From contig JAJRTN010000045.1 in the NCBI GenBank assembly GCA_024278275.1, forward strand, positions 14,560-78,559: a stretch of DNA of 64,000 nucleotides, written 5' to 3'. The translations under genes and the position numbers were made by a program. Positions 38,045 to 63,571 of this stretch are shown piece after piece; position 1 is the stretch's first letter, and each line of letters begins with the position of its first letter. The notes under the pieces are model-generated. The model saw only the letters and a program-made list of their open reading frames with translations. It did not search any database and was not told the origin of the DNA. Source of the DNA: Candidatus Hydrogenedentota bacterium. Its GTDB lineage: Bacteria > Hydrogenedentota > Hydrogenedentia > Hydrogenedentales > JAJRTN01.

Positions 38045-38056
38045 GAGCGTGCGGCG

Positions 38057-39802
38057 CTACGCCTCCTCCACCACTTCCTCGACCGGATCGTCGCGGGTGA
38101 CGCGAACAATCTCCTCGAAGGTCGTCATGCCCCGCAGGGCCCGCTCCACGCCATCCTCGCGCAAGGTTCGCATACCGAGGCGCCGGGCCTCACGTTTGAT
38201 AACGTTGGAGTCCACATCGCGCAGGGCCAGGGCCTGGATACGCGGGCTCATGACCAGCAGTTCAAAGATGCCCGTCCGGCCCATGTACCCCCGTTGCGCG
38301 CACTGGTCGCATCCCACGGCGCGCCACAAACGGTGCGCGCGCGTGTCGTTGGCGTCAACGCCCAGCTCCGCCAGGTCCTCGGCGCGGGGCACGTATTCCT
38401 CGCGGCACTTCGGACAGATACGCCGCACCAGGCGCTGCGCCTGAATGGCGATGGTGGAGGACGTGACCAGGAAGGGCTCGATGCCCATGTTGACCAGGCG
38501 CGTCACCGCGCCCGCGCTGTCGTTGGTGTGAAGCGTCGAGAAGACGAGATGGCCCGTCAACGAGGCATGCACCGCCATATCCGCCGTCTCGTGGTCACGA
38601 ATCTCGCCGACCAGGATGATGTCAGGGTCCTGGCGCAAAATACTGCGCAGGCCCGATGCGAACGTGAGGCCTATCTTGGGCCGCACCTGGATCTGGCCGA
38701 TCCCGGCAATCTGGTATTCAATGGGGTCCTCTACGGTGATAATGTTCTTGTCGGGCGAGTTTACCTTCTGCAAGGCGGCGTAGAGCGTGGTGGATTTGCC
38801 GGAACCCGTGGGGCCGGTGACCAGGAAGATGCCGTGGGAGCTTTGCAGCAGTTTGTCCACGTGCGCGTGGACTTCTCCGTCCATGCCCAGCTTTTCGAGG
38901 GAGAAAAGGAAACTCCCTTTTTCAAGGATACGCATCACCACCCGTTCACCGTAGGCCGTGGGGATGATGGAAACGCGGATGTCGATCTCTTTGCCGCTCA
39001 GGCGAATCTTGATGCGACCGTCCTGGGGCAGGCGGTGTTCGGCGATATTCAGGTTCGCCATGATCTTCACGCGGGAAATGACGGCCGCCTGTTGACTGCG
39101 GGGCACGTCGAACTTCTCATAAAGCACACCGTCGATGCGGAAACGGATCCGGACCGTGTGCTCAAAAGGCTCGATGTGGATGTCGGAGGCGCGCTCCTTC
39201 ACCGCCCCGGTAATCAACAGGTTGATGAGCTTGATGATGGGCGCTTCGTTGGCCAGATCGAGAAGATCACGCTCGGATTCGATGTTCTCAAGCGTGTGAA
39301 TCGTCCCTTCATCGTCATCATCGGTCATGGTAATGCTGTCGATCATTTCGGCGGCATTCTCACCCTGCTGCTCGAAATAACTGTCAATGATCCGCTGGAT
39401 ATCGTCCTTCGGGCAGAGCACGGGAACCACCGGCCCGCCCAGCAGGAGGCGCAGGTCGTCAAGAGGCAGCAAGCTGACGGGGTCGTTCAACGCGACGTAG
39501 TAAGCGCTTCCGTTCTTGCGGAAAGGCACCATGTAGTATTCGCGAATGAAGTTGATGGGAACCTTGGTGGTGAGGGTCGGATCCACCTTATCTTCCAGGC
39601 TGGTCTCGACCGCGATGCTGAATTGCTCGCCCAACGCTTCGAGGATGTACATCTCATCCACATAGCCCAGCTCCATCAGCACCTCGCCCACGCGCTTGGG
39701 ACGAATCTTCTGCAATTCCAGGGCTTCCGTCACCTGCTCGGGATGGACATAGCCCTTCTCCAGCAGGATATCGCAAAGCTGTCGGTCCTGTGCCTTGGGC
39801 AT
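38057..39802 (-). CDS. gspE: Type II secretion system ATPase E (GspE)
   Basis: N-terminal GspE-N domain, Walker A GPTGSGKSTTLYAAL, Asp/His boxes, and the tetracysteine motif CPKC…CDQC. 581 aa. Confidence 0.95.
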   Translation of the reverse strand: MPKAQDRQLCDILLEKGYVHPEQVTEALELQKIRPKRVGEVLMELGYVDEMYILEALGEQFSIAVETSLEDKVDPTLTTKVPINFIREYYMVPFRKNGSAYYVALNDPVSLLPLDDLRLLLGGPVVPVLCPKDDIQRIIDSYFEQQGENAAEMIDSITMTDDDDEGTIHTLENIESERDLLDLANEAPIIKLINLLITGAVKERASDIHIEPFEHTVRIRFRIDGVLYEKFDVPRSQQAAVISRVKIMANLNIAEHRLPQDGRIKIRLSGKEIDIRVSIIPTAYGERVVMRILEKGSFLFSLEKLGMDGEVHAHVDKLLQSSHGIFLVTGPTGSGKSTTLYAALQKVNSPDKNIITVEDPIEYQIAGIGQIQVRPKIGLTFASGLRSILRQDPDIILVGEIRDHETADMAVHASLTGHLVFSTLHTNDSAGAVTRLVNMGIEPFLVTSSTIAIQAQRLVRRICPKCREEYVPRAEDLAELGVDANDTRAHRLWRAVGCDQCAQRGYMGRTGIFELLVMSPRIQALALRDVDSNVIKREARRLGMRTLREDGVERALRGMTTFEEIVRVTRDDPVEEVVEEA

Positions 39803-39804
39803 GC

Positions 39805-42336: not shown

Positions 42337-42380
42337 GCGGCGTATCGGCGCCGGTCCAGGACGTCTTGACGGTCCAAAAC

Positions 42381-43295
42381 CTAGCGCAGGTTGTAGGTGA
42401 TTATCCTCGGCTTGCCATTGCGAAGAATACCTATCCGGAACGACGACGCGTTCTGGTGCTTCTGTATAAGCTCCATGATCTTCGCTTGACTGTCGATTCG
42501 CTCATTGTTGACGGTCTGCAGAATGTCCCCGTCCTGAAGGCCGAGCTTCTTGGCCAAGGGATACCTGCCGATGTTGGCCGCCGTGACACCGGTCACGTTG
42601 CCCCGTGCGTCGCGCTTAATCACCGGCTTGATCTTGAGAAGTTCCGAGTAGTTGTTCACCAGCTCATCAGTAATCTCGGCCTTGCTGAGTTGGACTCGCT
42701 GCGTACTCCGGGTCGATGTTGAACTCGGCGGCTTGACCTTCGGCGCGGATGCAAAGCTTTCGCCATCGTCCATGCGCAACCGCTCCTGAACGGGCGGAGT
42801 TTTACGCTTGTTCAACAAGATAACCTGCCGCTTGTGAACTTCCGCCAAAACCACCTTGTCCACGACTTCCTCGCCCAGAAGAAAACTTTCCGGGTTGCCC
42901 CGGCGATCAAGATCCTGGATGAAGGCGCTCGCAAACAAATCGTCCTTGGAAAGGGCGATGGTGCCCATGAGGCGAAGGTTCAAATCCGTGTCGGGCAAAT
43001 CCTCCTGGACCGCCTGCACGGGCGGCGGAGGCGGCGCCTTGGACGGATCGAAGCGCCCGGCATCCCCGAACAGGCCATACTTGGTGATCACATCATAACT
43101 GGCCAGGGGACCCACCTCGGGCAAACGCATACCGCCGGCATCGGCGGGCGGCTCCGAACGTTCCTCCTGGGGCAAGGCGGCCTGGACAGGGTGCAAAAAC
43201 CGCATGACGAGTATACCGCCCATGGCCACGGCCGCCGCGGCCAAAGCCAAGTCCAACAGGATGAAGAATCGGCGTATCGCCAGGCCTCGAACCAT
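42381..43295 (-). CDS. gspC: Type II secretion system protein C (GspC)-like: TM + HR region + C-terminal PDZ domain
   Basis: TM FFILLDLALAAAAVAMGGILV. PDZ-like …GNVTGVTAANIGRYPLAKKLGLQDGDILQTVNNERIDSQAKIMELI…. First gene of the block. I prefer M65 of the ORF-track ORF (start about 43295). Alternative upstream starts are 43373 and 43487. Confidence 0.7.
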   Translation of the reverse strand: MVRGLAIRRFFILLDLALAAAAVAMGGILVMRFLHPVQAALPQEERSEPPADAGGMRLPEVGPLASYDVITKYGLFGDAGRFDPSKAPPPPPVQAVQEDLPDTDLNLRLMGTIALSKDDLFASAFIQDLDRRGNPESFLLGEEVVDKVVLAEVHKRQVILLNKRKTPPVQERLRMDDGESFASAPKVKPPSSTSTRSTQRVQLSKAEITDELVNNYSELLKIKPVIKRDARGNVTGVTAANIGRYPLAKKLGLQDGDILQTVNNERIDSQAKIMELIQKHQNASSFRIGILRNGKPRIITYNLR

Positions 43296-43654
43296 TGTTC
43301 TCTCTACTTCCGTAACGCGGCGCCGCTTGAAGTCAGGGTAACGCCGAAATATGGCGCACGAGTCATCGCCCATGGCCCTCGCCCCCGCACAAACCGTTCC
43401 ATGGCAACACGTTTGGGGTCTTCGTATGAACGTGTTGCCGCGGGATGAAGTTGACACAGGCAGGGGGCGTGCCCGCGTGGAACCCATCGCCCCGGCACTC
43501 CACCCCCGGACTGCCTTGGATTCAGGGGTCCGCCGCGGCCCACGGAGGACGGTTGCCGGGCCGACGCAAGTCTAGCGGATTACCACCCGGCAACGCAATG
43601 CCAAGCAAAACCGCGGCCCCTCTCCCCCGCCTCTTTGGAAGGGAATAGCAGAGG

Positions 43655-43700
43655 AAAAAAGTCCATCGACAAATAAATGCCGGGAGCACAGGCTCCCGGC
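43655..43700 (-). terminator. Rho-independent terminator after metzincin gene (9-bp GC stem, ACAG loop, U-rich tail on minus strand)
   Basis: Plus strand reads gaggaaaaaagtcc…gccgggagc-acag-gctcccggc. On the minus strand the hairpin is followed by auuuauuugucgauggacuuuuuu. Confidence 0.55.
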
Positions 43701-43729
43701 AAAGGCAGATCGGGATGAGATTGAGGGGG

Positions 43730-46153
43730 TCAACGCCGGGCGCGACGTTGCTCCCGGGCGATATGGCGGAGATAAGCCATGTATTCGCTGACCGTGACAG
43801 GCGTGGCGGCATCCACTTTGCCCGTGCCGGCTTTGCCGACAGCCGCTTCGGCCCGCTTCGCCTTGATTTTGGCGGCATCCTGTTTAAGGGCCATCGCACC
43901 GGTCTCGGTCCCCGCGCGCAGCACCTTATTACCCGTTTCGACATCGACGCTCACACGAAACACCCCGCGGGCGCCACCCAAAAGCCGCAGGGTCCCGTCG
44001 TCGGTTTCGCGAAGAAACAGGATCAATTCCTGGCCATCCTTGAGTGGAGCGGGCGCCGTGCTTACCCGCATTTCAAGGATACCGTACTTGCCGCCAAGGT
44101 AACTGAACTGGGTAAGACCCTCTTTATTGAGACGGCCCTTGGCCGTGTCCGTCACGCGAAGCGACACGTCGGTGTAGATGCGATTCTGATCAGTTCGGTG
44201 CGTGCTGACGGCCTCGACCACCCCGGAGACAATATGGGTCGCCTGCTGCGTGAGTTCCTCGCTGCTGATGTAGGCAAACGCGGCATGGGCCGCGGGCATG
44301 ACGCCGCCTGATGCGAGAAGGAACAGCAAGGCGGCCGTGGTGGCCACGAAACGGCGGCGAAGCCCCAGCATCAGGAGCAGAAGCGTACTCAGCGTGGCGA
44401 GGATGGTCAAACTGATCATGGTGATATGCTCCAGCACCCAGGCAACCCCCTGAACGCAGGTCCTGGCCGCTTCGAAGGCCCAGGCATGGCGCAGCAGGAA
44501 ACGCGCCATGGCGGGCGACATGCGGTAATAGGTATCCGCCACCATCGCCCCGGCCGCGGAGCTCAGGAGATAGCGGTCGCGGAAACCACGCAGGTTCTTC
44601 GACACGATCATCCCAACCGTGCCGCCGGTGTCCGTCCCCGTGCCGCCCGTGCCCTGGGTGATAACATTCAGGGGGCACACGTCATTGGGGTCGCCAAACA
44701 TGGGGGCATCGGGACGGATAATGGATTCAAGGGCCTTTCCGCTCGTGTAACTCACCAGCTTATTCCTGGAAAAATCCCAATACACGGGGGTTCCCGCGTC
44801 ATGATTCTCCACGTCTATGATATTGCCGCTCTCGTGGAATGTGGAAGAGAAGAAATCGATGTTGTAGGGCCCGCCGGTTCCGGTGTGCAAGGTGTCATGA
44901 TCCGCGGGAGTCCGGCCCTCGGGTGCCTGCCGGTCCAACCCCAACTGGTTCAGCGGATTACAGGTGAAGGTATAGGTCGGCGTGTAATGCTGCTGGGGTA
45001 TGCTCGAACCGGGCCGCTCAAACTGTTTCCACAGCCCCTTCAGTTCAAAGTTGCCGTTCTGCTCGGGAGAGGTCTGCGTTTCGTAGAGTCCCGTCATGGT
45101 GCTGAACATGGCCACGCGCTGGGCCTGCCGGGGATCGTCCCGATCTTCAATATCGGCCCATGCCACAATGTGCGCGCCCAGCAGCGGTTCGCTGGGGAAG
45201 TTGGTCCGCGTTTCCGTCCGCGCACGCTGATTCACATCGAACATGTTCGCCCAACCGCCCTCGCGGGGATAGAGATAGGTGAGTCCGGAGATGTCGTCGG
45301 GCGCCAGATCCGTCCCCCCGTCCCTCCGCTCGCCATGCTGATCCTCCACGTCAAAGGCGATGGGATACATGGTAGGGGTGACCCCGACCCAGTCCGCCAC
45401 GCCCTGCGGATTGGTGAACCAGAAAACTTCGCTTTCCACGAGCCCCGTTATACTGGTGGGATCGTTGGGATCGGCCAGCGTGGGCCGAAGGTTGTTGTTC
45501 GGCGGATGACCCAAGCCAAGAAAGTGGCCAATTTCGTGAACCAGGGTGGCCTTAAGGTCGATCAGCGGCTCCAGGCTGCCCGGCAACGGACGGTGGGCCA
45601 GTGCATCGACAACAATATCGATATCGATGATTTCGCCGGCGGTAACCCAGATAGCTTGCCCGTTGTTACCAACCAGCTCGCCCTCGGCCGTGGCCTGCAA
45701 GATGATGGTAACGCCCAGGATCCCCCCCCCCACGGAGCCCGCTTCAGGGTCGCCGGCACCCGCCATGAAAACACTCGGCAGAAAATCGACCGTGGGAGAC
45801 ACCGGAATGGGGTCCGAGAAAACGCGGCCGTCCTGGAAGGCCGCATAGGAGGTGGGGACATCCTCCCAAACCTGGAAAGATTCGTTGACGACATCGATCT
45901 CGTCATCCGTGAACCCAAAATCACCGCCCTCGATGAAAATCTCGATGCCTTCATCAGGACCCACTTCGCCATCGTTGTTGGTGTCGAACTGGCCGAAATC
46001 CCACTGCTGCAAGCGCAGGATGCCAAAATCGTCGAAGAAACCCAGCGGGTAAAAGGCCCACGCCGAGGGCGCCAGCGCCAGCACCAAAACCACGGCAATA
46101 ACCCCCACTCCCGTTTGACGTATGGTCGCGCTCACGTGTTGCTTTCCTTTCAT
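43730..46153 (-). CDS. Secreted metzincin-type zinc metalloprotease (HExxHxxGxxH + Met-turn), composite with two TM helices and a ~200-aa C-terminal domain
   Basis: Signal peptide MKGKQHVSATIRQTGVGVIAVVLVLALAPSAWA (ATG 46153). HEIGHFLGLGH…TMYP. Later ISLTILATLSTLLLLMLGLRRRF and VATTAALLFLLASGGVMPAAHA hydrophobic segments, then a C-terminal domain of unknown function. Confidence 0.75.
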   Translation of the reverse strand: MKGKQHVSATIRQTGVGVIAVVLVLALAPSAWAFYPLGFFDDFGILRLQQWDFGQFDTNNDGEVGPDEGIEIFIEGGDFGFTDDEIDVVNESFQVWEDVPTSYAAFQDGRVFSDPIPVSPTVDFLPSVFMAGAGDPEAGSVGGGILGVTIILQATAEGELVGNNGQAIWVTAGEIIDIDIVVDALAHRPLPGSLEPLIDLKATLVHEIGHFLGLGHPPNNNLRPTLADPNDPTSITGLVESEVFWFTNPQGVADWVGVTPTMYPIAFDVEDQHGERRDGGTDLAPDDISGLTYLYPREGGWANMFDVNQRARTETRTNFPSEPLLGAHIVAWADIEDRDDPRQAQRVAMFSTMTGLYETQTSPEQNGNFELKGLWKQFERPGSSIPQQHYTPTYTFTCNPLNQLGLDRQAPEGRTPADHDTLHTGTGGPYNIDFFSSTFHESGNIIDVENHDAGTPVYWDFSRNKLVSYTSGKALESIIRPDAPMFGDPNDVCPLNVITQGTGGTGTDTGGTVGMIVSKNLRGFRDRYLLSSAAGAMVADTYYRMSPAMARFLLRHAWAFEAARTCVQGVAWVLEHITMISLTILATLSTLLLLMLGLRRRFVATTAALLFLLASGGVMPAAHAAFAYISSEELTQQATHIVSGVVEAVSTHRTDQNRIYTDVSLRVTDTAKGRLNKEGLTQFSYLGGKYGILEMRVSTAPAPLKDGQELILFLRETDDGTLRLLGGARGVFRVSVDVETGNKVLRAGTETGAMALKQDAAKIKAKRAEAAVGKAGTGKVDAATPVTVSEYMAYLRHIAREQRRARR

Positions 46154-46252
46154 GGCACCCGGTCCTTCCGCCGGCCGGTCAGGCTGGTCTTGTCGCGAAG
46201 ATCCGCCCACGGACCGCCGAACGGCCCGCGGGCGAAGATCCACTATATCCGT

Positions 46253-49200
46253 TTACGCTTTGTTTCGCATTTTAGCGCGGCACGCGCCCAGCAGCAAGGC
46301 CAAAACCGCCATCAAGGCGATCAGATCGCCGCCGGCACCCGACTCCGCGGAACCCGCCGCACACCCGATTCCAGGAATGTCGGGCGAGTTGAGATACTCG
46401 AATCCGTTCACCAAAACATCTTCCTTGCCTTTGCTCTCGTCGCGCACGGTCACATCCAGGGGACCGGTCTTCGAGATACCACCGGCGGGGAAGCCCACAT
46501 TCACCCAACTGCCGTCGCCGGCAACATTGAGAACCTGCATTTCCGTATCACCAAAGTACACGGACAAGCTGCCCTCACCACCGAAGTTGGCACCATGTAC
46601 CACCACGGGGAAGACCGCCTGCGTACCCCGGTCCGGCTCTACGCGGATCACCTTCGGGCCATCCTGCGTGGAGCCGCCCACCAGGCTGAAGAGATCGGAA
46701 CGAACGGTTTCCTCCCGGGTCGCCGGATTCTTCACGATCAGAATGATCGGTTCCACGGGCGGCTCGTCGATGCGGGAACTGATGGTAACATCAATGGTGT
46801 TATCGGTCGCCGCAGTGATCACCACGTCGTAACCACTCAACAGCACCTCCGGGTCGGAGCCGAAGCCACGCCCACGGATAACGAACTCGAAGGGCTCGCC
46901 GGGCAACGTCTGGGCGGGCAAGGCCGTCTCGCTGACACCGTCAATCACCACGGAAACGGGCGAAAGCGGCTTCTTGCGCGCCTCGATAACTCCCGAACGC
47001 TGTTTCTTCGCGGAGTGACTGCGCACCCAGTTGATACCGCTGGTATCGGGCCGTTGCCTGGCTTCATTCCCATCCATGAAGTACCGCGTGGGCGGCTCCT
47101 TGAAGAAGCTGATAAAGCCCAAGCCGCGGCTGCCCCAGTTGAATTCCTCGAACTGCTTGTAGCCGTCCCGGTCACCACCGGACAGGCGCGCCCATGTGTC
47201 GGGATCGGGTTCCGACGGGGTGTTGGGACCCCAGGAAACAATACCGACACGGAAATCATCGTTCTCTTCCATGGTATCACTCGCGCGAATTACCAGGAAG
47301 AATTCCGCGCCGTGGTCCGGATCCGTGGTCCGTCGTCCAAAGCTGTCGGGAATCCACTGGCGGTGATTCGTCTGCTGCGCCATGGGCACGGGGACATCGT
47401 CCGTACCGGGGGTGGAGAAGACGAACTTGACCTGTGTCGACTCGCCGGAAACGCCGGAGAAGAAGGGGGCCACATCCAATTCGACCGGGAGGTCGATATC
47501 GGCATCGAAGATCCCGTTCCGGTTCCGCGGGTCGTTGTCATTATCACGGTAAAGCGCCAGACCGCTAATCCGCGGATCAATACTCAGGGGCAACAGGTCG
47601 GTGACGGGATTGAAGTTTCCGTTCGCACCCTGATCATAAAGCTCCACGATAAGCTGTTCGAGGAAGGTGGGATCGCGAACGATGCGCCACGGTCCCTCGG
47701 CCGGCGTGCCAAAGCGGAGTGAAAGCTGGTCCACCGTGTTCGACACGATCTCGAAGGCATGGTACTCCTTGTCCACGAGCCAATCTCCGGCGAACTCATC
47801 TTCCGCCCAAGCCGCGCCCACCGCGGTAAACCCGGCGGGAAGCCCCACGCCCGCGTCCCCCGTGGCCAGCGTGGCATCGGGGCGATTCGTGGATGCATCC
47901 ACCCCCATAACCGCCATGGCCGCGCCGCCAATGGTCAGCTTCTGCGTCGCATTGGTGAGGTTCAGGATGTGATGCGGCACATTGACTTCCATCATGTCAT
48001 GACCATAGAAGTCCTGTACCGGATCCTCATCGGGGCTGGTCTTGGTGTAGGCCGACGGACTGGTATTTATCTCGGGGAAGAACTGAATACCAGCCTGCCG
48101 TTCTTCGGGGCGTCGCGACGGCAAGGTGGCGGGCACCAGCACGCGGAATTGCTCGAAACGCCGGGCCTTGTCCGAGGTCTTCACCGTGATGAAGAGGTCG
48201 TCACCACCTTGGTCAACGGCCGGATCAAGGGCCTTTTCGTCCGGTCCGCCGGACTGGAGGATTTCCGCTTCTATCGTTGAAAGCTGCTTCTGAAGCGCCT
48301 CCGCCTCTTTCGTTCCGCCGAAGAAATTGGCGCCGACGCACCAACGCAGAATGAAATTAAAGGCGATACCGGTGGTCAGGTTGTCGTTGTGCGGCAACGG
48401 CCAAACCTCGCCCGGTTCGATTTCGACAACCCAGGCCAAGTCATTGCTATCCGCCACGCCATCGCCATTGAGGTCGTCCGGCGCGCCATCACCGTCCAGG
48501 TCGATGGGTTCAGGACTGGACGCCCACTGCAGATTGCGCAGGGGCACCACGTCATCAAAAGCATCGAAAACCGGCAGGGCATCCGCGTAATCGGCAATGG
48601 GGCCCGGCGTGAAGAACACACCGTTCTGATCCGCGTCCTCCCACAGGAGAATGCCCGAATCCAGATCGCTGCCGTCGGGGTCCAGGGGCGCCAGGTCATC
48701 CGGCGTGAAGTCGGGCCCCCAGAACGCCAGGGTAATCTTCGCCAGGCTGGGTTCCTGGCGGCCATTGACAATAATGTCATCCACGCCGGCGAGGTTGATA
48801 CCCAGCATGGCGGTCTGATTGCTGTCAACATCGATCTTCTGGGTCAGCAACCGGGCCTGTGTTTCCTCCAGGGGCCAGTCGCTCGCACGGGGATACTCAC
48901 CGGGGGCAAGCAGGGCGGGCCAGGTCGCATAAGCCGGCATGTTCGGCTGGAACGGGGGCGTCGCGTAGGCCGATGAACGATTGTCACCATCCAGCGAATT
49001 GAGGAATGGCACGGTCTCATAGGCGTACTGCCAGCTTTCATCATAGGTGAAGTTGATACCGTTTCCGATCCCCGCGTCTCCCGCACTCAGCGGAATGGAC
49101 AAACTGCCGAAGACGGACCAGTAGGTGACTCCCACACTGTGAAGATTGAGGAATTGGCTGCGAAGGAGACCGAAAGGATCCATCCAGCGGTCGAAATCCG

Positions 49201-52200
49201 TGGGGTCGTCCAACCCGTCGGCAAAGCCGTAACAGACCGAGCCGAAGGACGATCTCGAACCCCTTCCGAAGAAAATATCGGCTCTGAAGGCATACTCCGA
49301 ATCCGACTCATAGGTCAGGGTCAGATCGTGGACGTCCACCGTGCTGCGAAGCGGCTTGGCCGCGCTCGCGTTATGGGTCCGCTGGGGCCACCAAGGCTCC
49401 ACCGCCCCCCACTGCGGGTAGTCCTGCCAGGGCGCCCCGAAGAAATCGGGGTAGGCCAGGGAACCCTGCGCGGGGATCATACTGCTCAGATAGATTCCAC
49501 CGTCCTCGTGGCCAAAGCGGGCGTTGAAGCGCCGCGGCTCGATGAACACGCGGAAGTCCGCGCCGGCGGTAATGCCTCCCCCCGTGTTGGGTCCCATGGA
49601 GATATCCTGATAACCACTGTCGGTGCGGATAACCAGGAAGTAGTCAAATGTCCACGAACTGATGGGATCGGTGAAAACATTATCCGGCGTCGGCTCGAGG
49701 AAACCCGCCACGTTGGTTTCGTCCTCGGTCTCGGCGAGGGGCCGCCGCTCGCCGAAGATGAATTTCATTTTGAGTTTCCACCACGGATCACCACCGCCCG
49801 GAGGATTGGCGATATATTCCCAGCCCTGATCCTGGAAGAAGCTGCTCCCCATGCCAGGGAACATGGGCCGGTCGGTAAAGGTGATGCCGCCGCCGGGCAC
49901 CTGGGTGGGCGGATCGAAGATCCCGTTGTTGTTTGTATCGGACCACACCCAAACGCCGTTGAACGAGAAGTCATGTTCCAGGACCGGCTCGTACGTGGGA
50001 TACTCGTCGTAAGTGATCTCGTTCATACCGGTGATGGGATTGAAACCACCGTTGCCGGGCGGCCCCAGGGGATCCGCGCCGATGTCGGTCATGATCACGT
50101 TCACCTCGCGCAGCTCCGCCGCGGGACGATCCGCGAAAATAGTCCGGAAGCCCACATCGGGATCATATTGGTCGAAGTGGAGCGATTTGGTGGAGTGGAT
50201 GTTCAGGCCCAAAACGGGGAACCATGCTTCCATGGGCACCAACTGACGGATACGCAGGAACTCACCCGAGAAGCTGTCCAGCAACTGGTCGAAAGCGTTC
50301 CAGCGTGGCCGTGTAAACTCGGCCACCGGCGTGTACATGTAGTGCGGGGCCGTCCAGGTATTCACCATCCCCAGGCCATCCTGGATCAACGGCGTACCAC
50401 GCATCTCGAAAACGGAAAAGCTGGAAGCGTAAGCGTCGGTGTTCTCCAGGATTTCACCCGTCAGGAAATCCGGCGTGTAGCTGTCCAACGGTGCGCCGTC
50501 ATCACCCAGGGGGAAGTTGCCGTTAAGCGTCACCATTTGGGCGAAGAGGGCATCGGCGCTCATGGTAAGCTGACTGCGCCACGTGGCGGATGTCCGCACC
50601 GCGAGGACGTAAGACGCACCGTCCACCGTGTTGTCCACGTCCGGAGCGGCCGTGATATTCACCAGCGGCGTCCCCGTGTCATCGAGGAAATTGAGATCAT
50701 AGCTGATGAATCCGTCGTTCCCCGTGGCCACGCCGTAAGGCGCGCCGTCGTTGGCCCAACGGGCAATGAGCACGTCGAAGTCACTTAACACACCATTGTT
50801 GGCATCATCGCCACCGTCAAAGACTTCCCGGAACAGGCCGAATTCAAGCAGATCGCTCTGGTCCGGACCACCGGCGTTCAGGTAACCCAAATCCCTGCTG
50901 CTGTCATCATCACCATGAATGATGTACCGCAGGCGGGCCAGGTTGCGCGGCGCGGGCGCATCCACGCCATAGTTCATGGTGAAACGAAGCAGGGGCACCC
51001 AGTCACACAGGGGCACCAGCGCTTCACGGTCGCGAACGGCGGATTCGATGGTGAAGTTGGCCGGATCGGTCGCGATCTCGCCCTCGCCCTCACCCTCGGC
51101 GCCTCCCGCGAGAATCACCTGCACGTAGTCCTGGCGAACACGCTCGTTACGAACCAACTCGCCCGTACCGCTCTCGCGGAAGGTCACCTCCAAGGTCACC
51201 GTGTAGAAGCCGGGAGCGGTATAGAGGTGAGTCGGGTTGGCCTGGGAAGATTCGTCACCCGTGGACTGATCACCAAAGTCCCAGAAATAGGACTCGATGG
51301 CATGGTTCGGCCCGGGGTCGGTCTCGGCGCTGCTGAAACTGACCGCGGCGACACCGTTGGCCAGGGTCACCACCAGGGGTTGCGCGCTGAAATCGGCAAA
51401 GGGCGTCTCGATGATCTCGATATAATCATCCTTGAAAAGGGTGATCTCCGTCCCGAAGCGATCCACGATGGTCACGCTGACCGAATAGACCCCGGTCTGC
51501 CCGTAGACATGGGTGGGACTCTGCTCGAAACGGTCGTCGCCCGTGCTGCCATCGCCAAAGTCCCACGTCACGGTACTGATATTCTGGGGCTGGTTGCTGA
51601 GGATCTGGAAGGCCACCTCCTCGCCGAGGGCCTGCCGCACCGGCGTGGCCTCGAAATCGAAGGTCGGCGTTTCAAGCGCTGTAATCGGGGCGGTACGGGC
51701 AAACTTGTTCGGGTTGGTGCGCACCCAGTAACGGATGTTCGGATCCCGGTCGTCCTGGCTGTGATCCACTTCCTCGGCGGGCACGAAACGCTGTGCCTCG
51801 TAACTGTAGGTCCAGTTATAGACCGGGGGCGGATCCTGGAAGAAAGAGATCAGACCGATCCCGCGCGCGCCCCAGGGGAATTCGGAGAAGATATCGAACT
51901 CGTCTTCGCGCTGCTGCCGAAGATCGCCCGGCTCCAGGGTGACCGAGAAATTATCCGGGTCGGGTTCGGTCGGCGTGTTGGGTCCCCACGAGACGATGGC
52001 CGCGGCGAAATCATCACCTTGGCTCATCAACAACGAGGGACGTACCACGACGAAGAAATCGGGGCCGTAGGCATCCTCGGAGATGGTCCGCCCGAAGGTC
52101 TGGGGAATCACCTGGCGGAGCCTCGGCTGGGTCTCGTAGGGCACTACCGGTTCGGGACGGCCCACGATGTTGTCGGTGCCGGGCGAGGAGAAGACCATCT

Positions 52201-55200
52201 TGACCTGGTACTGGGGCTCCCCGGCGCGCCCGATGCGGATGGGCGGATCGTCGAGCCGCACGGGCAAGTCGATATACTCCACCACCGCGCCCGTATCGGG
52301 ATCCAGCACGGGCGGATCAAAGACACCGTTGGTGTTCAGGGGATGGAGATCGTTGTCACGATAGAGCGACACACCGCTCCGGAAACCCCGAACCGGGTCC
52401 TCGTAGTTCAGTTCGAGGAAGTCCACCGGCAGGCGGAACTGGCCGTCCCGGCCCACGTCATAGAATTCGACAATAACCTGCTCCAGGAAGGTCGGGTCCT
52501 TCACCACATACCACTCGCTGCCCGCGCGGGGCGCGCCGGCGAGGAGGGTCAACGTATTACCGGCAACACCCGTGATCTGGAAGGCCTCCACGGCATCCAC
52601 CGCGTTGAGATCATAGGCCGCTTGCTTGCCCGTGTCCCCCGTCACCTGGTTCAGGCCGACAAGCCACAACCCCACCCAACCGTCGGGCGTGCCGTGCGGA
52701 TCAGCCGGATCGGTAATACCGGTCTCGTAATCGGTGATCTCGAACGTGTTGACCCCGGCGATGGTCCCCACCCCGGAGCCCCGGGCAATCAGGTTGTCCG
52801 GACGATTGTTGGACAGGTCAAGGCCCAACACGGCCACGGGCGGACCGCCCGGGGCCACGGCCGGCGTACCGGCGGGAGTGACCTCGAGGGAACCTGTCAG
52901 ATCCAGAATGCGGGTCGGAACATTGGCCTGCGCCATGTCATGGCTGTAGAAGTCCTGCACCGCGCCCTCGTCGGGATTGCTCTTCTGGTAACTATTCACC
53001 ACGGTGTAGGCAAACGGGGCCAGTTGAATGCCGCCATGACCGCTTACCACGGGGTTGGGCGGCACACTGCGCTCCGGCAGGCGTGCCGGGACAACACAAC
53101 GGAACTGCTCGAACGCGGCGATATCACCGGAGGTGCGCACCACGACGAAAAGATCGTCGCCTTCCGAACCGCCGGCCGCCAACGCCTTGGTGTTCGTGAC
53201 GGAATCCGGCACGGAAGCCAGGTCATACAGGCTGGGCTGGGCCGTCGAATAGAACGGACTGGCCAGCGCCTTCTCGGCGGGGCTCGCCCCGGCGATGGGC
53301 GGCGCGGCACCCGGCGGCGTCGATATGGGCGCGCCGGTCCGGCGGTCGGACTGGGGCAGGTTCCACGTTCCACGGGGCTGCAAGCGCAACACCCACGCCA
53401 AGTCGCTCAGGCCGTCCCAGCGGGCGGCCTCCGCGCCGGTAATCTCCCCGTTCGCAATCGCGGTTTGCACGAGGGCATCAATCTCGGAAGGCGTCAGCCC
53501 CGCCACCTCGTGGAGGAAGACCACGCCGTCACCGCTCATGTCGTCGGCAACATCGTCCCCGTCCAGATCGATGGCCTCGGGGCTTTGCGCCCACTGAAGC
53601 GTACCCGGCTCCAACGGTACAATCGCGTCGGTAAGGGCGGGTACCGGCGAGAAATCAAAGAACACCGGCGGGTTATACACGCCGCTGGCATTGGAATCCT
53701 CGTAAAGCAACACACCGGAAGTCACCTGCGTGCCATTGGGATCGAGGGCCGCTAAATCACGCCGGTCGAAATCCGGTCCCCAGAAGGCGATGGTGATGCT
53801 GTCGAGGGACACGCTGTTGTTCTGGTTCACGATGAAGTCATCCGTGCCCGCCAGGTTGATACCCAGCATGGCCATGGGCTCGGACTCGGCTTCAACATGC
53901 TGTTTCAGCAGACGCGCGGCACGGGCGCCCTGGTCCTCGGGCTTCACCGGGAAGTTCGGCTCATGCAGCGGGAGCGCACCACCGATGCGCGGGCTCAACC
54001 CCGCCTTCCAGTCAGTGGCATGGGGATAGGTGCCGCGCGGCTTGGCCACGTCGGTCACGGCCCAACGACCGCGGGAAATGGCGAAATCCTCGCCTTCCGG
54101 CACACCAAAGGGCCAATCCGGCAGGTTCAGCACGCCGTCGGGGTAGACGGCCAGCGTGGCCGGACGGTCCGGGAAGCGCGCGAACTTGTCCATGTAGGCA
54201 TTGTGCCCGCGCATCAGGAAGAGGGTGTTCCCATTGTTCCCGGTGATCTTGTAGCGGTTGCCCGCGCGATCCACGAGCCACTTGCCCGCGAGGGTATCCA
54301 CCCCCGAAAAAGCGCCGTCCTCGAGAACAAAGGCATACACGTCATCCGAATAGGTGGATTCGGAATCGGGCGAGGTCGGGATGGCATAGGGTTCGTTGGT
54401 CACGCCTTCGTCGTAGAGGTAACAGTAACTCTCCTCGCCCCAGGCCAGGGCAATCGTGTTCAGCGGCCAGGACGTATCAAAGGCCAGGTAGTCCCGCGTA
54501 TCACGGAAGCGCGGCAGGGTCGGCTGTTCGGCGGGTTCGGGGTAGAAACTCGACCGGGGGTAGGTGGCCTGGCCGTCGATGGCGTCCGCGGTCAGGTCAA
54601 AGGGCACCGTCTCGTAAGCGTACTGGATCGCTGTAAGCGCGTCGTCGCCCGTCAGGTTCTCGGAGACATCCCGTTCCACGCCCACGGAAGCCGGGGGCGT
54701 AAAGCGGCTTTGCAGCATACCGTATTTGATCAACGTCGGCGGAACGTCCGGACCGAGGGTGTCGAGAATCGGCGGATCAACCCACAGCGAAAAGAGCGTT
54801 CGCCCAACAGACAAATCGGTATTGGGCACGGGAGTCGGCGGATTCTGGGCGATATTGATATAGGTTTCCTTGGCAAACACGTTGTTCGTGCTGTAGGTCA
54901 GCACCAAGTCGTGAATCTCGATCCCCCCCTGCTGTATCTTCGCGTTGTCCCGGTTCAGCGAACGCTCGGTCCACCACGGCTGGGGCGCCATGAAGACGGG
55001 CACGCAATTGTCCGGCGTGCTGCAATCCATGGTGATGCTGGTTTCGTCGCGGGCAGGGTTATCCTGTCCAATCACCCCCACGGGCGCAGGAATGTCGGAA
55101 CTGAAAAGGATGCCGCCGTCGTTATGGCCGCCATGAAGCGGGTTCCACCGGCGCGGCTCGATGAAGGCCCGGAAATCCGCGCCCACGGGCAGCCCCGTAC

Positions 55201-57538
55201 CATCCCCCTGCAACCCGGAAATATCCCGGAAACCGCTGTCGGGACGAAGCGTCACGAAATAGTCGGCCTGGGGCTGGTTCCCACGCAAGCCGGGGGGAAA
55301 GAAATCCGGGAGCGATTCCAGGCCGCCCGTGCAGCCCTGGCCGGACTGCAGATGACCACCGCCCGAGAAACGAAGACGGATCTTCCACCACGGGTCGCCG
55401 CCACCCGGCGGGAAGGGAATGTATTCCCACTCGAAAAAGGTGCCATCCACGAAATCCGATCCCGTACCCTGATCCAATATGCCGCCCGGACGCATGGGGA
55501 AATCGTTGAAATCGACACCCACGCCCGTGGGACTGGGCGGGTTGAAAATGCCGTTACCGGGACAATTAGACGGATTGCCCGCGGCGTCCGGGCAGTTTGA
55601 ACCACCGTCATTGTCATAGAACATCCAGGCACCGTTAAAGGAGTAATCGTTTCCGACGGCATGTCCCTGTCCCCCGTCCGCGGCCGTGGTCATCTTCTCG
55701 AGGCCCTCGGTCGGCTCAAAGCCCCCGTTACCCGGCACCGCGAAAGGATCGCCGCCTACGTCGGTAACGATGAGGTTCACTTCCGTCGGCCCCGTGTAAC
55801 AATCGCCGTGGGCGTTAATGGCGATCACGGGCACCCACGTCTCGACGGAGAAAATGCGCCGAATGTCCAGGAACTCCCCGGTCAGCGCCTGCACCATGGT
55901 GTTCGAAATATCCCAGCGCGGGCGAAAATGCTCCCGCCGGGGAGTGTACATGCGGATCGGCCAATTCCACGTGTTGCGGTCAAAGCCCGGACGATAACTG
56001 AAATCGCCCGTGTTGTTCCCGGATACATCCCATAGGCCGAAATTGGAGGTATAGCCCACATCCTCGGAAAGGGGAAAATCAGGATAGTCGTCGATGGGAG
56101 CCAAGTCGTCCGGGTTGATGGGAAAGTTGCCGACGGTCACGGGATCGTTCGCTTCGGGCCCCTCCCCGCCCAAGTCCGCGGGCGGATCGGGGGCGAAGGG
56201 CAGCATGGTGGCGCCAAGCACGGTGTAGGAAATGCCGGTGCCCGAGGTCCAACTGGAGGAGGTCCGAAAGGCCAGTATGTACGAATTATTGGGGGCGGGC
56301 CCCGCGGTCATCCAGCTTCGCGTCCGGGTCGGCACCCCGGTGACCTCGTCAATGTGGGTCCGGTAAAACGGCAGTTGGGGATTGTTCAGGTCCAGCGGAA
56401 CCGCCGCGTTGAAGGTGGGGTCGTGGGGGTTGAAAACAAAGGACAGGTTGTAGTCCAAGTCCCCGTAACTGAACGCACCCGTCGCGTCGGGCGTATCGTA
56501 GGGGTAGCCATGACCGTTGAAAACGACGACCGGCACCCGTGAATCAAAAAAACTTGTCGGAAGGCGAATATCGAGCAGGTCATCCGGCTCACCCTGGGGA
56601 CCGCTGTTCCGGAAGATGGCGAACTCCAGGATATCGGATTCCTGGGGCCCCACCAAACTGGATGAATTGCCACGGACGACATGGTCGCCGTCGATCCTGA
56701 AGTGCAGGTTGGCCAAGGCCCGGGGAGCCGGGGGGTTGTCGGGGTTGTAGGTCATGTCAAAGCGAAAAAGGGGCGTCCAGTCATTGAAGGGCAGCAGGGC
56801 CGCACCGTCCCGCGCGCCAATAAGGTCGGTAACGGCGAAGGTCGCCGGCTCCGGGGCCTCGCCTTCCCCCTCTCCCTCGGCCGCTTCGGTGACCGTAAGC
56901 GTGCCTACGCTGACCGGGCCGTCGGGCGGGCACACGAGCTCCACGTCCGGGTTCTCGGCGTGAACAATCAGCACCTGCATGGCCACATCGTAGTCACCCA
57001 CGATATCCAGGGAGAGATCCAGGCCAACGAGATCCTGGGGAAGAATGGTCAGGGTCGCGTCGTCAAAGAGAACCGTCTCGTACACCGTGGCGTTACCGTT
57101 GGGATCGGTGATGGTCCACTCGATGCCGGCCACGTTGGCGGGAATGCCCGCGGGAATGTCCTGCACATCGCCATACAGGGTGACGTTAAAGACGGTAGGC
57201 CCCGTGGTGTCCGGGTCGGCGGCGAAACCCAGTTGATACATATCGCAGGTAATCACCTGGCTCAGCAGGGCGGACTGAACCATGAGCCCCGCCAGGGCGC
57301 TGCCGGGGGCGGCGGCCAGTTGCAGGGGCGCTTCCGCGGCCGGAGGCGCCTCGGGCAGCAGTTCCAACATGGCCTCCGTCACGGACGCCGTGCGTGTCTC
57401 TGGGGCGGGCGCCCCATCCTGTCCCCCCCGTTCCGCGGCAATGGTCCGCGCTTGTTGCCCGGGGAGAACCCCGATCATCCCGATCGTCACGATGGCCGCC
57501 AGGGCCACGCTCACGAAGGCACCGTGTTTCATGCTCAC
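46253..57538 (-). CDS. Giant (3,761 aa) secreted repetitive protein: signal peptide, two ~1,600-aa diverged tandem duplications, 2 PKD domains, 2 IPT/TIG-like domains, C-terminal sorting-signal-like tail
   Basis: N-terminal signal peptide. AEGEGEGE-initiated units share colinear motifs: PPGGGDPWWK(I/L)…, AMLGINLAG(T/V)DD…AFWGPDF, IDLDGD…DD…GDGV, FEQFR…VPA(R/T)LP, PTFLEQ(V/L)IVE(F/L)YD, GIVSWGPNTP(T/S)EPDPD. PKD signatures WDFGDGS…PTHVYG…GVYSVSV and WDFGDQS…PTHLYT…GFYTVTL. C-terminus …GIGCAAGSAESGAGGDLIALMAVLALLLGACRAKMRNKA. Confidence 0.8.
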   Translation of the reverse strand: MSMKHGAFVSVALAAIVTIGMIGVLPGQQARTIAAERGGQDGAPAPETRTASVTEAMLELLPEAPPAAEAPLQLAAAPGSALAGLMVQSALLSQVITCDMYQLGFAADPDTTGPTVFNVTLYGDVQDIPAGIPANVAGIEWTITDPNGNATVYETVLFDDATLTILPQDLVGLDLSLDIVGDYDVAMQVLIVHAENPDVELVCPPDGPVSVGTLTVTEAAEGEGEGEAPEPATFAVTDLIGARDGAALLPFNDWTPLFRFDMTYNPDNPPAPRALANLHFRIDGDHVVRGNSSSLVGPQESDILEFAIFRNSGPQGEPDDLLDIRLPTSFFDSRVPVVVFNGHGYPYDTPDATGAFSYGDLDYNLSFVFNPHDPTFNAAVPLDLNNPQLPFYRTHIDEVTGVPTRTRSWMTAGPAPNNSYILAFRTSSSWTSGTGISYTVLGATMLPFAPDPPADLGGEGPEANDPVTVGNFPINPDDLAPIDDYPDFPLSEDVGYTSNFGLWDVSGNNTGDFSYRPGFDRNTWNWPIRMYTPRREHFRPRWDISNTMVQALTGEFLDIRRIFSVETWVPVIAINAHGDCYTGPTEVNLIVTDVGGDPFAVPGNGGFEPTEGLEKMTTAADGGQGHAVGNDYSFNGAWMFYDNDGGSNCPDAAGNPSNCPGNGIFNPPSPTGVGVDFNDFPMRPGGILDQGTGSDFVDGTFFEWEYIPFPPGGGDPWWKIRLRFSGGGHLQSGQGCTGGLESLPDFFPPGLRGNQPQADYFVTLRPDSGFRDISGLQGDGTGLPVGADFRAFIEPRRWNPLHGGHNDGGILFSSDIPAPVGVIGQDNPARDETSITMDCSTPDNCVPVFMAPQPWWTERSLNRDNAKIQQGGIEIHDLVLTYSTNNVFAKETYINIAQNPPTPVPNTDLSVGRTLFSLWVDPPILDTLGPDVPPTLIKYGMLQSRFTPPASVGVERDVSENLTGDDALTAIQYAYETVPFDLTADAIDGQATYPRSSFYPEPAEQPTLPRFRDTRDYLAFDTSWPLNTIALAWGEESYCYLYDEGVTNEPYAIPTSPDSESTYSDDVYAFVLEDGAFSGVDTLAGKWLVDRAGNRYKITGNNGNTLFLMRGHNAYMDKFARFPDRPATLAVYPDGVLNLPDWPFGVPEGEDFAISRGRWAVTDVAKPRGTYPHATDWKAGLSPRIGGALPLHEPNFPVKPEDQGARAARLLKQHVEAESEPMAMLGINLAGTDDFIVNQNNSVSLDSITIAFWGPDFDRRDLAALDPNGTQVTSGVLLYEDSNASGVYNPPVFFDFSPVPALTDAIVPLEPGTLQWAQSPEAIDLDGDDVADDMSGDGVVFLHEVAGLTPSEIDALVQTAIANGEITGAEAARWDGLSDLAWVLRLQPRGTWNLPQSDRRTGAPISTPPGAAPPIAGASPAEKALASPFYSTAQPSLYDLASVPDSVTNTKALAAGGSEGDDLFVVVRTSGDIAAFEQFRCVVPARLPERSVPPNPVVSGHGGIQLAPFAYTVVNSYQKSNPDEGAVQDFYSHDMAQANVPTRILDLTGSLEVTPAGTPAVAPGGPPVAVLGLDLSNNRPDNLIARGSGVGTIAGVNTFEITDYETGITDPADPHGTPDGWVGLWLVGLNQVTGDTGKQAAYDLNAVDAVEAFQITGVAGNTLTLLAGAPRAGSEWYVVKDPTFLEQVIVEFYDVGRDGQFRLPVDFLELNYEDPVRGFRSGVSLYRDNDLHPLNTNGVFDPPVLDPDTGAVVEYIDLPVRLDDPPIRIGRAGEPQYQVKMVFSSPGTDNIVGRPEPVVPYETQPRLRQVIPQTFGRTISEDAYGPDFFVVVRPSLLMSQGDDFAAAIVSWGPNTPTEPDPDNFSVTLEPGDLRQQREDEFDIFSEFPWGARGIGLISFFQDPPPVYNWTYSYEAQRFVPAEEVDHSQDDRDPNIRYWVRTNPNKFARTAPITALETPTFDFEATPVRQALGEEVAFQILSNQPQNISTVTWDFGDGSTGDDRFEQSPTHVYGQTGVYSVSVTIVDRFGTEITLFKDDYIEIIETPFADFSAQPLVVTLANGVAAVSFSSAETDPGPNHAIESYFWDFGDQSTGDESSQANPTHLYTAPGFYTVTLEVTFRESGTGELVRNERVRQDYVQVILAGGAEGEGEGEIATDPANFTIESAVRDREALVPLCDWVPLLRFTMNYGVDAPAPRNLARLRYIIHGDDDSSRDLGYLNAGGPDQSDLLEFGLFREVFDGGDDANNGVLSDFDVLIARWANDGAPYGVATGNDGFISYDLNFLDDTGTPLVNITAAPDVDNTVDGASYVLAVRTSATWRSQLTMSADALFAQMVTLNGNFPLGDDGAPLDSYTPDFLTGEILENTDAYASSFSVFEMRGTPLIQDGLGMVNTWTAPHYMYTPVAEFTRPRWNAFDQLLDSFSGEFLRIRQLVPMEAWFPVLGLNIHSTKSLHFDQYDPDVGFRTIFADRPAAELREVNVIMTDIGADPLGPPGNGGFNPITGMNEITYDEYPTYEPVLEHDFSFNGVWVWSDTNNNGIFDPPTQVPGGGITFTDRPMFPGMGSSFFQDQGWEYIANPPGGGDPWWKLKMKFIFGERRPLAETEDETNVAGFLEPTPDNVFTDPISSWTFDYFLVIRTDSGYQDISMGPNTGGGITAGADFRVFIEPRRFNARFGHEDGGIYLSSMIPAQGSLAYPDFFGAPWQDYPQWGAVEPWWPQRTHNASAAKPLRSTVDVHDLTLTYESDSEYAFRADIFFGRGSRSSFGSVCYGFADGLDDPTDFDRWMDPFGLLRSQFLNLHSVGVTYWSVFGSLSIPLSAGDAGIGNGINFTYDESWQYAYETVPFLNSLDGDNRSSAYATPPFQPNMPAYATWPALLAPGEYPRASDWPLEETQARLLTQKIDVDSNQTAMLGINLAGVDDIIVNGRQEPSLAKITLAFWGPDFTPDDLAPLDPDGSDLDSGILLWEDADQNGVFFTPGPIADYADALPVFDAFDDVVPLRNLQWASSPEPIDLDGDGAPDDLNGDGVADSNDLAWVVEIEPGEVWPLPHNDNLTTGIAFNFILRWCVGANFFGGTKEAEALQKQLSTIEAEILQSGGPDEKALDPAVDQGGDDLFITVKTSDKARRFEQFRVLVPATLPSRRPEERQAGIQFFPEINTSPSAYTKTSPDEDPVQDFYGHDMMEVNVPHHILNLTNATQKLTIGGAAMAVMGVDASTNRPDATLATGDAGVGLPAGFTAVGAAWAEDEFAGDWLVDKEYHAFEIVSNTVDQLSLRFGTPAEGPWRIVRDPTFLEQLIVELYDQGANGNFNPVTDLLPLSIDPRISGLALYRDNDNDPRNRNGIFDADIDLPVELDVAPFFSGVSGESTQVKFVFSTPGTDDVPVPMAQQTNHRQWIPDSFGRRTTDPDHGAEFFLVIRASDTMEENDDFRVGIVSWGPNTPSEPDPDTWARLSGGDRDGYKQFEEFNWGSRGLGFISFFKEPPTRYFMDGNEARQRPDTSGINWVRSHSAKKQRSGVIEARKKPLSPVSVVIDGVSETALPAQTLPGEPFEFVIRGRGFGSDPEVLLSGYDVVITAATDNTIDVTISSRIDEPPVEPIILIVKNPATREETVRSDLFSLVGGSTQDGPKVIRVEPDRGTQAVFPVVVHGANFGGEGSLSVYFGDTEMQVLNVAGDGSWVNVGFPAGGISKTGPLDVTVRDESKGKEDVLVNGFEYLNSPDIPGIGCAAGSAESGAGGDLIALMAVLALLLGACRAKMRNKA

Positions 57539-61537: not shown

Positions 61538-61541
61538 CGCC

Positions 61542-63324: not shown

Positions 63325-63571
63325 GGTGGCCTCTCCGGCGGACTGACCGAATACTGACAGTGTGACAGCCCAATGACAGCTTGCCAAGGCGGTTCCTGCC
63401 CGGAAACTCAGCAAATTAACGATGCCGAGGGACAAAAATGGCCACCCGGGTGGATAGAATCTGCCGCCAGGCAAGTTCCATAATGGCACACACTTGTCAA
63501 TCAATTCCCTCAGCGTGCTGTTTAGTGTAGGGTTTGCACCCTTTTCAAGTCAAGCACCCCGAAAAACACGC

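Follow-up and report, generated by a model that had tools for sequence, protein, structure and literature searches.

A conserved fusion of a matrixin-like metzincin and an NTR/TIMP-like domain across an internal signal-peptide-like segment in Candidatus Hydrogenedentes

TIMP-type control of metzincins is treated as an animal feature. In the TIMPs, as in the AprI/Inh proteins, the N-terminus that is freed by removal of the signal peptide enters the active site of matrixin- or serralysin-type enzymes. There are also polyproteins, such as FbcH of Bradyrhizobium japonicum (cytochrome b and c1) and those of the flaviviruses, in which signal peptidase splits the product at an internal signal-peptide-like segment located behind a transmembrane (TM) helix. 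In Listeria monocytogenes a metzincin, Mtz, is encoded adjacent to a TIMP-like protein, Tim (Boichis et al. 2021, PMC8235301), and the authors of that study found no earlier record of a bacterial TIMP-like protein. Already known, then, are the Listeria metzincin/TIMP-like gene pair (one bacterial case), the serralysin/Inh pairs and the polyproteins cut by signal peptidase. Here we describe a gene in a 64,000 nucleotide (nt) stretch of DNA from a Candidatus Hydrogenedentota bacterium (the window; assembly GCA_024278275.1, contig JAJRTN010000045.1, positions 14,560 to 78,559) which encodes a secreted metzincin and an NTR/TIMP-like domain in one open reading frame (ORF). The product joins two complete secretory precursors: the first is a metzincin with its own signal peptide and a tail of the CFI-box-CTERM type, and the second is a signal peptide followed by an NTR/TIMP-like domain. 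On balance we favour the view that signal peptidase I cleaves this fusion, giving an anchored metzincin and, in the periplasm, a TIMP-like partner that probably acts as an inhibitor. The features of the gene are as follows.

43730..46243, minus strand: whole ORF, 837 residues from the GTG at 46243, with the stop codon at 43730-43732 and an uninterrupted frame
46055..46153, minus strand: N-terminal Sec signal peptide, residues 31-63 (MKGKQHV...ALAPSAWA, with FYP after the cut), and probable true start, ATG 46153, with a Shine-Dalgarno (SD)-like GGAAGGA upstream
45254..46054, minus strand: metzincin catalytic domain, about residues 64-330
45506..45538, minus strand: zinc-binding consensus HEIGHFLGLGH, residues 236-246
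45362..45379, minus strand: Met-turn TPTMYP, residues 289-294, in which Met292 is invariant
44687..45253, minus strand: beta-rich middle region, about residues 331-519, drawn from secondary structure and a predicted local distance difference test score (pLDDT) of about 90 or more in the full-length model
44420..44686, minus strand: CFI-box-CTERM-like tail, residues 520-608, which holds NDVCPLN (its Cys523 is invariant), a variable linker rich in G/T and a region of three helices, LRGFRD...YYRMSP...
44360..44419, minus strand: first TM segment (TM1), residues 609-628 (MISLTILATLSTLLLLMLGL), whose first codon is the internal ATG 44419
44351..44359, minus strand: Arg cluster RRR, residues 629-631, which would be both the n-region of the internal signal peptide and the loop of the hairpin on the cytoplasmic side
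44282..44350, minus strand: internal signal-peptide-like segment, residues 632-654 (FVATTAALLFLLASGGVMPAAHA), then AFAYISS..., with a predicted cut after Ala654, between bases 44282 and 44281
43733..44281, minus strand: NTR/TIMP-like domain, residues 655-837 (183 residues), which begins with a segment of 6 residues and helix 1, forms an OB barrel as far as about residue 779 and ends in two long helices
43678..43701, minus strand: terminator-like hairpin with a 10-bp stem, 8 G-C pairs and a T-rich tail, 29 nt past the stop codon

An initial annotation of this DNA had listed the protease motifs, a TM segment followed by RRR, a second hydrophobic segment ending in AHA and an internal ATG preceded by GGAG, and all of these are found where it placed them. 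The extra C-terminal domain that it described is also present, but is 183 residues long (655-837) and not 200. The middle region, about residues 331-519, has no match in Pfam or NCBIfam.

A search of 5.8 billion proteins returned 83 homologues of the ORF product, with 33-55% identity and nearly all covering 83-97% of the query. Wherever a source is named for these proteins it is Candidatus Hydrogenedentes, and 80 of them are complete (738-869 residues). Alignment of these 80 orthologues shows an identical order of parts in every one, always within one single polypeptide: a signal peptide, the protease, the beta-rich middle region, NDVCP(L/M)N, a variable G/T-rich or acidic linker, the LRxFRD...YY..P helices, an uncharged run of 12-22 residues (TM1), a basic loop with a net charge of +3 to +8, a second uncharged run of 16-25 residues and the C-terminal domain. 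There is no unfused version of the Hydrogenedentes protease among the homologues from this search. The fusion of the protease and the NTR domain is conserved, and the same layout in all complete orthologues supports a natural and old fusion, one of three explanations that had been offered for the composite ORF. The second of these was that a lost stop codon, or an indel in the assembly, had joined two genes. Nothing is in favour of this besides the appearance of two precursors placed one after the other, and it is refuted by the uninterrupted frame, which is the same in 80 orthologues at this level of divergence from independent assemblies (NCBI, JGI, ENA and Logan) and for which no unfused protease was found. 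Because these orthologues carry the same uninterrupted part order, we regard an artefact of this kind as excluded for all practical purposes.

The third explanation was a nested gene, in which translation would also begin at the internal ATG (44419-44417, Met609) to yield a separate product made up of TM1, RRR, the signal peptide and the NTR domain. This ATG has a GGAG 9 nt upstream and there is a Met at the column of the TM1 start in 20/80 orthologues, but the Met is missing from the other 60. The SD match is at chance level: an SD-like tetramer precedes 2 of the 17 in-frame ATGs, about 1.7 would be expected, and one of the two is the real start. Additionally, there is no convincing promoter within the ORF, and the strong terminator-like site is found only past the stop codon. 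An internal start is thus unsupported and we consider it very improbable. Apparent split-gene versions were also rejected. Two short proteins that start at TM1 (P0085 and P0105) are gene calls at contig edges; both begin <=25 nt from the contig end and the frame is open to the edge.

The start of the fused gene itself is probably the ATG at 46153 (Met31) and not the GTG. The public protein P0001, which is identical to the ORF product, has 807 residues and begins at this Met. The cut of the N-terminal signal peptide follows a clear pattern in the 80 orthologues, with A (62), S (14), G (2) or T (2) at position -3, A (68) or G (12) at -1, F or Y at +1 and P at +3.

The residues preceding the C-terminal domain match this genuine N-terminal site of the same proteins. 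Position -3 is A in 71 orthologues, V in 4, S in 4 and G in 1, and position -1 is A in 71, G in 5 and S in 4, so that both are small in 80/80. Position -2 is variable (H, S, F, Q, G, N, D and others) and is Ala in just 2/80, Pro is frequent at -4, and +1 is R, G, L, S, A or Q with no Cys. The segment as a whole has the architecture of a Sec signal peptide, in which the basic loop is the n-region, the second uncharged run provides a short h-region, and small residues occupy -3 and -1 of the c-region. It departs from a signal peptide in its position, being internal (residues 629-654) and behind a TM helix. The initial annotation had likened this second segment to a complete signal peptide with an AXA site. 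It had also been argued that orthologues uniformly encoding the same fusion, with two ordinary TM helices, would speak against a composite of two precursors. Of these, the uniform fusion is borne out, whereas the second segment differs from an ordinary TM helix. In the full-length model the internal segment has a pLDDT below 50, and the stretches of lowest confidence are residues 592-606 and 615-623 in the numbering of P0001 (add 30 for that of the ORF), which are the loop and the c-region. An AxA box would serve no purpose in a permanent TM helix, and we therefore predict that signal peptidase I cleaves after Ala654 (AHA); from the conserved pattern this seems likely. A literature search on bacterial polyproteins with internal signal peptides gave nothing relevant.

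The alternative is that both segments are permanent TM helices of an uncleaved hairpin, by which the NTR domain would be tethered beside the protease as a binding module with no free N-terminus. Two hydrophobic segments with a positively charged loop between them would fit a helical hairpin. The model of the full 807-residue chain has a predicted template modelling score (pTM) of 0.83, which suggests that the protease and NTR domains are confidently placed relative to each other and may pack together in a single chain, and in PCOLCE, complement C3/4/5 and agrin an NTR module located internally or at the C-terminus acts in binding. However, a plain TM helix would not need A/V/S/G at -3 and A/G/S at -1 to be kept in 80/80 orthologues while -2 is free. 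The uncharged run is only 16-25 residues long, and this includes a polar c-region with Pro and Gly. Moreover, the stand-alone homologues have a genuine signal peptide at their N-terminus, and it is spaced in the same way. We therefore regard an uncleaved hairpin as rather unlikely, and prefer cleavage at the internal AxA site.

The domain that such a cut would release was described initially as of unknown function. A model made from a 40-sequence alignment (pLDDT 94.9, pTM 0.89) begins with a segment of six residues and a short helix, continues as a beta barrel and closes with two long helices. Its Foldseek matches include NtA (E 6.7e-5), TIMP-2 (E 9e-4) and TIMP-1. An OB barrel with an N-terminal segment and helices is the arrangement of the NTR fold, so that the domain can now be named: on the strength of this model it very probably has an NTR/TIMP-like fold. 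It is NTR/TIMP-like by fold and is not a member of the TIMP sequence family. Weak matches to PRK00809 and DUF4131 were far below their cut-offs and were dropped. A profile of the domain searched against the PDB sequences gave no NTR or TIMP protein, the single match being 8fjg_A ('H12', E 0.19), which is not significant. We also aligned the domain with N-TIMP-3, using a sequence checked to be identical to 3cki_B. The sole local hhalign match, in an alignment that is not significant (probability 0.4%), pairs columns 10-24 of the domain consensus with the same positions, 10-24, in N-TIMP-3, which suggests that the N-terminal register is the same as in TIMP-3.

The profile of the C-terminal domain was also searched against 1.84 billion representatives, which gave 16,644 matches at E <= 1e-3, 5,812 at <= 1e-10 and 104 at <= 1e-30. 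Among the matches listed there are stand-alone relatives of about 160-240 residues, in which the domain starts from about residue 22-62, right after an N-terminal signal peptide. In the fused and stand-alone forms alike, the conserved L/M of helix 1 comes 10-11 residues after the cleavage site. One relative (P0124, E 1.6e-41) is within the score range of the fused family and is nevertheless a stand-alone protein: the frame upstream of it contains stops, and the adjacent gene lies on the opposite strand. The stand-alone relatives (P0185-P0221 among the proteins) are not covered by any Pfam or NCBIfam model.

We surveyed 44 loci with stand-alone genes (L008-L051) from Bacteroidales and Rhodothermales; the narrow query alignment used samples only Bacteroidota and Rhodothermales. 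All 44 contain a cassette of genes for a secreted TPR protein (~329 residues), a TPR+CHAT protein (~1,000 residues), the TIMP-like protein and a giant protein, and in all of them the stand-alone TIMP-like gene is directly upstream of the giant gene. Two of the giants were scanned and both match Pfam Peptidase_M10 (38.9 and 34.9 bits, cut-off 24), and HExxHxxGxxH is present in the giant at 26/44 loci within the 6 kb of sequence fetched. At one other locus (L007) the neighbours are the end of a CHAT gene and an FG-GAP-like giant, which is consistent with the cassette, and there is no protease motif in the visible part. The contigs of P0201, P0191 and P0215 are so short that no neighbouring genes are seen on them. 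A blastp comparison of the giant encoded in the window with the Bacteroidota giants gave no match. The NTR-like domain thus recurs beside a matrixin-type domain in another phylum, which is a signature of functionally linked partners.

The protease half carries the extended zinc motif of the metzincins, HExxHxxGxxH, as HEIGHFLGLGH, and this is intact in 55/80 orthologues. Below the zinc site there is a Met-turn, TPTM(Y/F)P, the Met of which is invariant in 80/80. The domain has the catalytic fold of the metzincins (clan MA(M)), and is nearest to the MMPs and serralysins. It falls outside the families themselves: the matrixin model of Pfam (PF00413, MEROPS M10A) gives 20.2 bits against a gathering cut-off of 24 and only its zinc helix aligns, and NF035945, the model of the serralysins, a family with C-terminal RTX repeats, gives 14.4 bits against a cut-off of 500. 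No propeptide with a cysteine switch is evident in the orthologue alignment, because the conserved mature N-terminus, F-x-P-x-G, directly abuts the signal peptide; there is also no conserved Cys upstream of the zinc site.

In the remaining 25/80 orthologues at least one zinc ligand, or the catalytic Glu, has been lost, as in QSVGSLLGLGY and HHVGQLLGLAY (P0010, P0023, P0035-38, P0045, P0050-52, P0057-59, P0061-68, P0070, P0072, P0080 and P0082). These zinc-less proteins retain the hairpin and the AxA site, with Ala at -1 in 25/25. In the largest zinc-less clade the predicted mature N-terminus of the NTR domain is G-Q-x-P-I instead of x-I-A-Y/F-L. A coupling of this N-terminus to the status of the active site was considered and not adopted: the smaller independent losses mostly retain the hydrophobic pattern, and the correlation may reflect one event because it is mainly the large inactive clade that has changed to G-Q-x-P-I.

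From these features we infer cleavage, binding and inhibition in the following way. The N-terminal signal peptide would export the protease domain and TM1 would then halt transfer, so that the Arg cluster would remain in the cytoplasm. The second hydrophobic segment would restart export as an internal signal peptide, and signal peptidase I would cut after AHA (Ala654). Each translation would thus give one metzincin, anchored in the inner membrane by the hairpin, and one free periplasmic TIMP-like protein, in a 1:1 ratio. The new N-terminus, AFAYIS..., would be as far from the first beta-strand as Cys1 is in the TIMPs. The TIMP-like product would most likely bind its own protease domain and keep the propeptide-less enzyme latent, and the pair may act on, or together with, a giant surface protein encoded upstream and the adjacent type II secretion system (T2SS), which are described below. 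An inhibitor with a free N-terminus is plausible because the catalytic domain is nearest to MMPs and serralysins, which are enzymes blocked in this way. The self-silencing role is judged the most likely because TIMPs and AprI/Inh use a freed N-terminus and because this enzyme has no propeptide. By analogy with those systems, inhibition of its own protease by the released domain, in the catalytically intact members, is possible, and we put it a little short of probable. Rather more tentatively, we propose the complete scheme: a bacterial secretory polyprotein from which signal peptidase I yields an anchored matrixin-like protease and a stoichiometric TIMP-like inhibitor whose new N-terminus would plug the active site, the fused proteins being the tip of a family of >16,000 clusters that partners matrixin-domain proteins.

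Several points weigh against cleavage and inhibition as set out here. The predicted cleavage rests on a sequence pattern. No usable Pfam or NCBIfam match supports sequence kinship of the C-terminal domain to TIMP or NTR proteins, the hhalign comparison with N-TIMP-3 is not significant, and the TIMP hallmark (Cys1 and Cys3, with the disulfides Cys1-Cys70 and Cys3-Cys99) is absent, there being no conserved Cys in the domain. Agrin and PCOLCE are examples in which an NTR module simply mediates binding. Zinc ligands have been lost on at least 6-7 separate branches of a neighbour-joining tree, and the NTR domain is equally constrained in active and zinc-less orthologues (identity ratios relative to the rest of the protein of 0.79 and 0.75). 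Because 25/80 orthologues are zinc-less and keep both the AxA site and an equally conserved NTR domain, blocking catalysis cannot be the sole role of this domain, and the persistence of such orthologues suggests that binding or another partner function matters beyond inhibition. Finally, Tim of Listeria is a substrate released by Mtz and has not been shown to be inhibitory (PMC8235301).

In a serious alternative the fusion is cleaved but the NTR product is a substrate or an effector, as for Tim, or an adaptor or chaperone for the giant protein or the T2SS, and the protease-like domain may be mainly a binding scaffold. The constraint on the NTR domain in the zinc-less orthologues would be in keeping with this, as would the behaviour of Tim, a protein that acts on the cell wall and that Mtz releases by cutting it (PMC8235301). 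The giant gene is upstream in 6/6 genomes, and in Bacteroidota the stand-alone gene always comes after the TPR+CHAT protease gene, which would also fit such a role. Against it, the active site is intact in 55/80 orthologues and in the window protein, and these proteins lack a propeptide. The TIMP mode also agrees with the fold, with an N-terminal register that is conserved and with a pairing with matrixin-type domains that is seen repeatedly. Taken together, the data make a product with no inhibitory function somewhat unlikely, and we retain release of a probable inhibitor as the preferred reading.

The tail of the first precursor resembles the C-terminus of a known class of proteins. The NCBIfam model CFI_box_CTERM (NF041770) matches residues 550-598 over positions 18-66 of 69; the whole protein scores 41.8 bits and the fragment 45.8 bits (cut-off 40). 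Model positions 1-17, which include the C-F-I motif, are unaligned; the family instead has an invariant Cys (Cys523) in NDVCP(L/M)N, followed by the variable linker. The TM helix and RRR are present, but the tail is not at the C-terminus, about 206 residues (632-837) lying beyond the Arg cluster. The linker between Cys523 and LRGFRD (residues 558-563) is highly variable in the orthologues, from <20 G/T-rich residues up to long insertions rich in Asp, Glu, Thr and Gly (for example in P0014, P0020 and P0064-P0072), and has low model confidence. A canonical tail is found in the same phylum, where the giant upstream of the orthologue at locus L052 ends in ...GPCFIATAAYGT...FRAFRDEALL...YYAASP..., a TM helix, RRRRR, TL and a stop. 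It contains the canonical PCFIATAAYG and matches the full-length CFI-box-CTERM model with 80.8 bits. The view that a TM helix with an Arg cluster is the usual end of a CTERM-like protein is thus borne out, both by the NF041770 match and by a giant that stops 2 residues after its Arg run. A literature search gave no paper mentioning CFI-box-CTERM.

The genes that surround the fusion in the window are the following.

46253..57538, minus strand: upstream giant gene, encoding a 3761-residue protein with two PKD domains and a C-terminal GC...TM...basic tail
36821-43487, minus strand: T2SS genes gspC (T2SSC and PDZ domains), gspD (secretin), gspE and gspF, directly downstream of the protease gene
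57987-63504, minus strand: gliding-type ABC transporter set upstream of the giant gene, made up of an ABC ATPase, a 272-residue ORF, a GldG-like ABC_transp_aux protein and a DUF4340 protein

The giant gene is 9 nt upstream of the listed start of the ORF and about 99 nt upstream of the likely ATG. A giant of 2,411-3,819 residues is encoded immediately upstream of the orthologue in all six genomes examined, and PKD domains are recorded for four of these; the loci with upstream giants include L001, L002, L052 and L053. The giant ends in GC...TM...basic tail in four genomes, a tail that matches no sorting-domain model of NCBIfam, and in the canonical CFI-box-CTERM in one (L052). The T2SS operon, gspCDEFG..., is immediately downstream in 4/6 genomes, and the two genomes without an adjacent T2SS represent the large zinc-less clade. 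Because the terminator-like hairpin at 43678-43701 follows the stop codon of the protease gene, it appears that the giant and protease genes form a transcription unit apart from gspC onwards. The 272-residue ORF of the ABC transporter set has no Pfam match and is possibly the permease.

At the level of fold, then, a TIMP/NTR domain is fused to a matrixin-like protease throughout a phylum, and its secreted bacterial relatives form a very large family, as yet unnamed, whose genes repeatedly adjoin those of matrixin-domain giants. If the proposed processing is correct, it would represent a rare logic in bacteria, in which an internal signal-peptidase site gives a fixed 1:1 ratio of protease to partner together with the free N-terminus that TIMPs need. 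It would offer a testable model for the latency of propeptide-less bacterial metzincins, a new family to annotate and a natural case of a polyprotein processed through the Sec and signal-peptidase machinery. A CFI-box-CTERM tail would at the same time be linked to a type II secretion locus. If the released domain also inhibits its protease as in the complete scheme, the regulatory logic of MMPs and TIMPs would not be an animal invention.

To our knowledge there is no description of a protease-TIMP-like fusion through a cleavable hairpin, of an internal CFI-type tail, of the large stand-alone family or of the Bacteroidota cassette, and among polyproteins with internal signal peptides we know of none in which a protease is combined with an inhibitor-like domain. 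The individual parts can each be compared with a described system. FbcH and the flavivirus polyproteins share the site behind a TM helix, but their products are respiratory or viral structural subunits. The CFI-box-CTERM proteins (NF041770) share the helical region LRxFRD...YY..SP, the TM helix and the Arg cluster; here VCP(L/M)N replaces C-F-I, a G/T-rich linker is inserted and the tail is not C-terminal. The serralysin AprA and its inhibitor AprI (Inh) are likewise a bacterial metzincin with a co-encoded periplasmic protein inhibitor, a role that is probable for the domain described here, but AprI/Inh is an eight-stranded beta-barrel of another fold, encoded by a separate gene and with no membrane hairpin.

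The closest comparisons are with the animal TIMPs and with Mtz/Tim. In the animal TIMPs and their NTR module (MEROPS I35; N-TIMP-3 in 3cki, TIMP-1 and TIMP-2) the domain also begins at the signal-peptide cut, which is predicted in our case, the N-terminus is equally far from strand A, and the partner is a metzincin like the matrixin/serralysin-like one here. The domain described here differs in that it is bacterial, has no detectable sequence similarity to TIMPs, lacks Cys1, Cys3 and the disulfides, has two long C-terminal helices in place of the TIMP C-domain and is part of the same polypeptide as the protease. In Listeria, as here, a secreted bacterial metzincin is encoded with a predicted TIMP-like protein that is initially membrane-tethered and is released by proteolysis, although release in our case is a prediction. 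Mtz and Tim are the products of two genes, and Tim is a lipoprotein that is cut by Mtz itself about 50 residues in. In contrast, the Hydrogenedentes protein is encoded by a single ORF, has a TM hairpin and no lipobox Cys at +1, and would be released by signal peptidase I; its host is a diderm, and its gene is linked to those of a T2SS and a giant protein.

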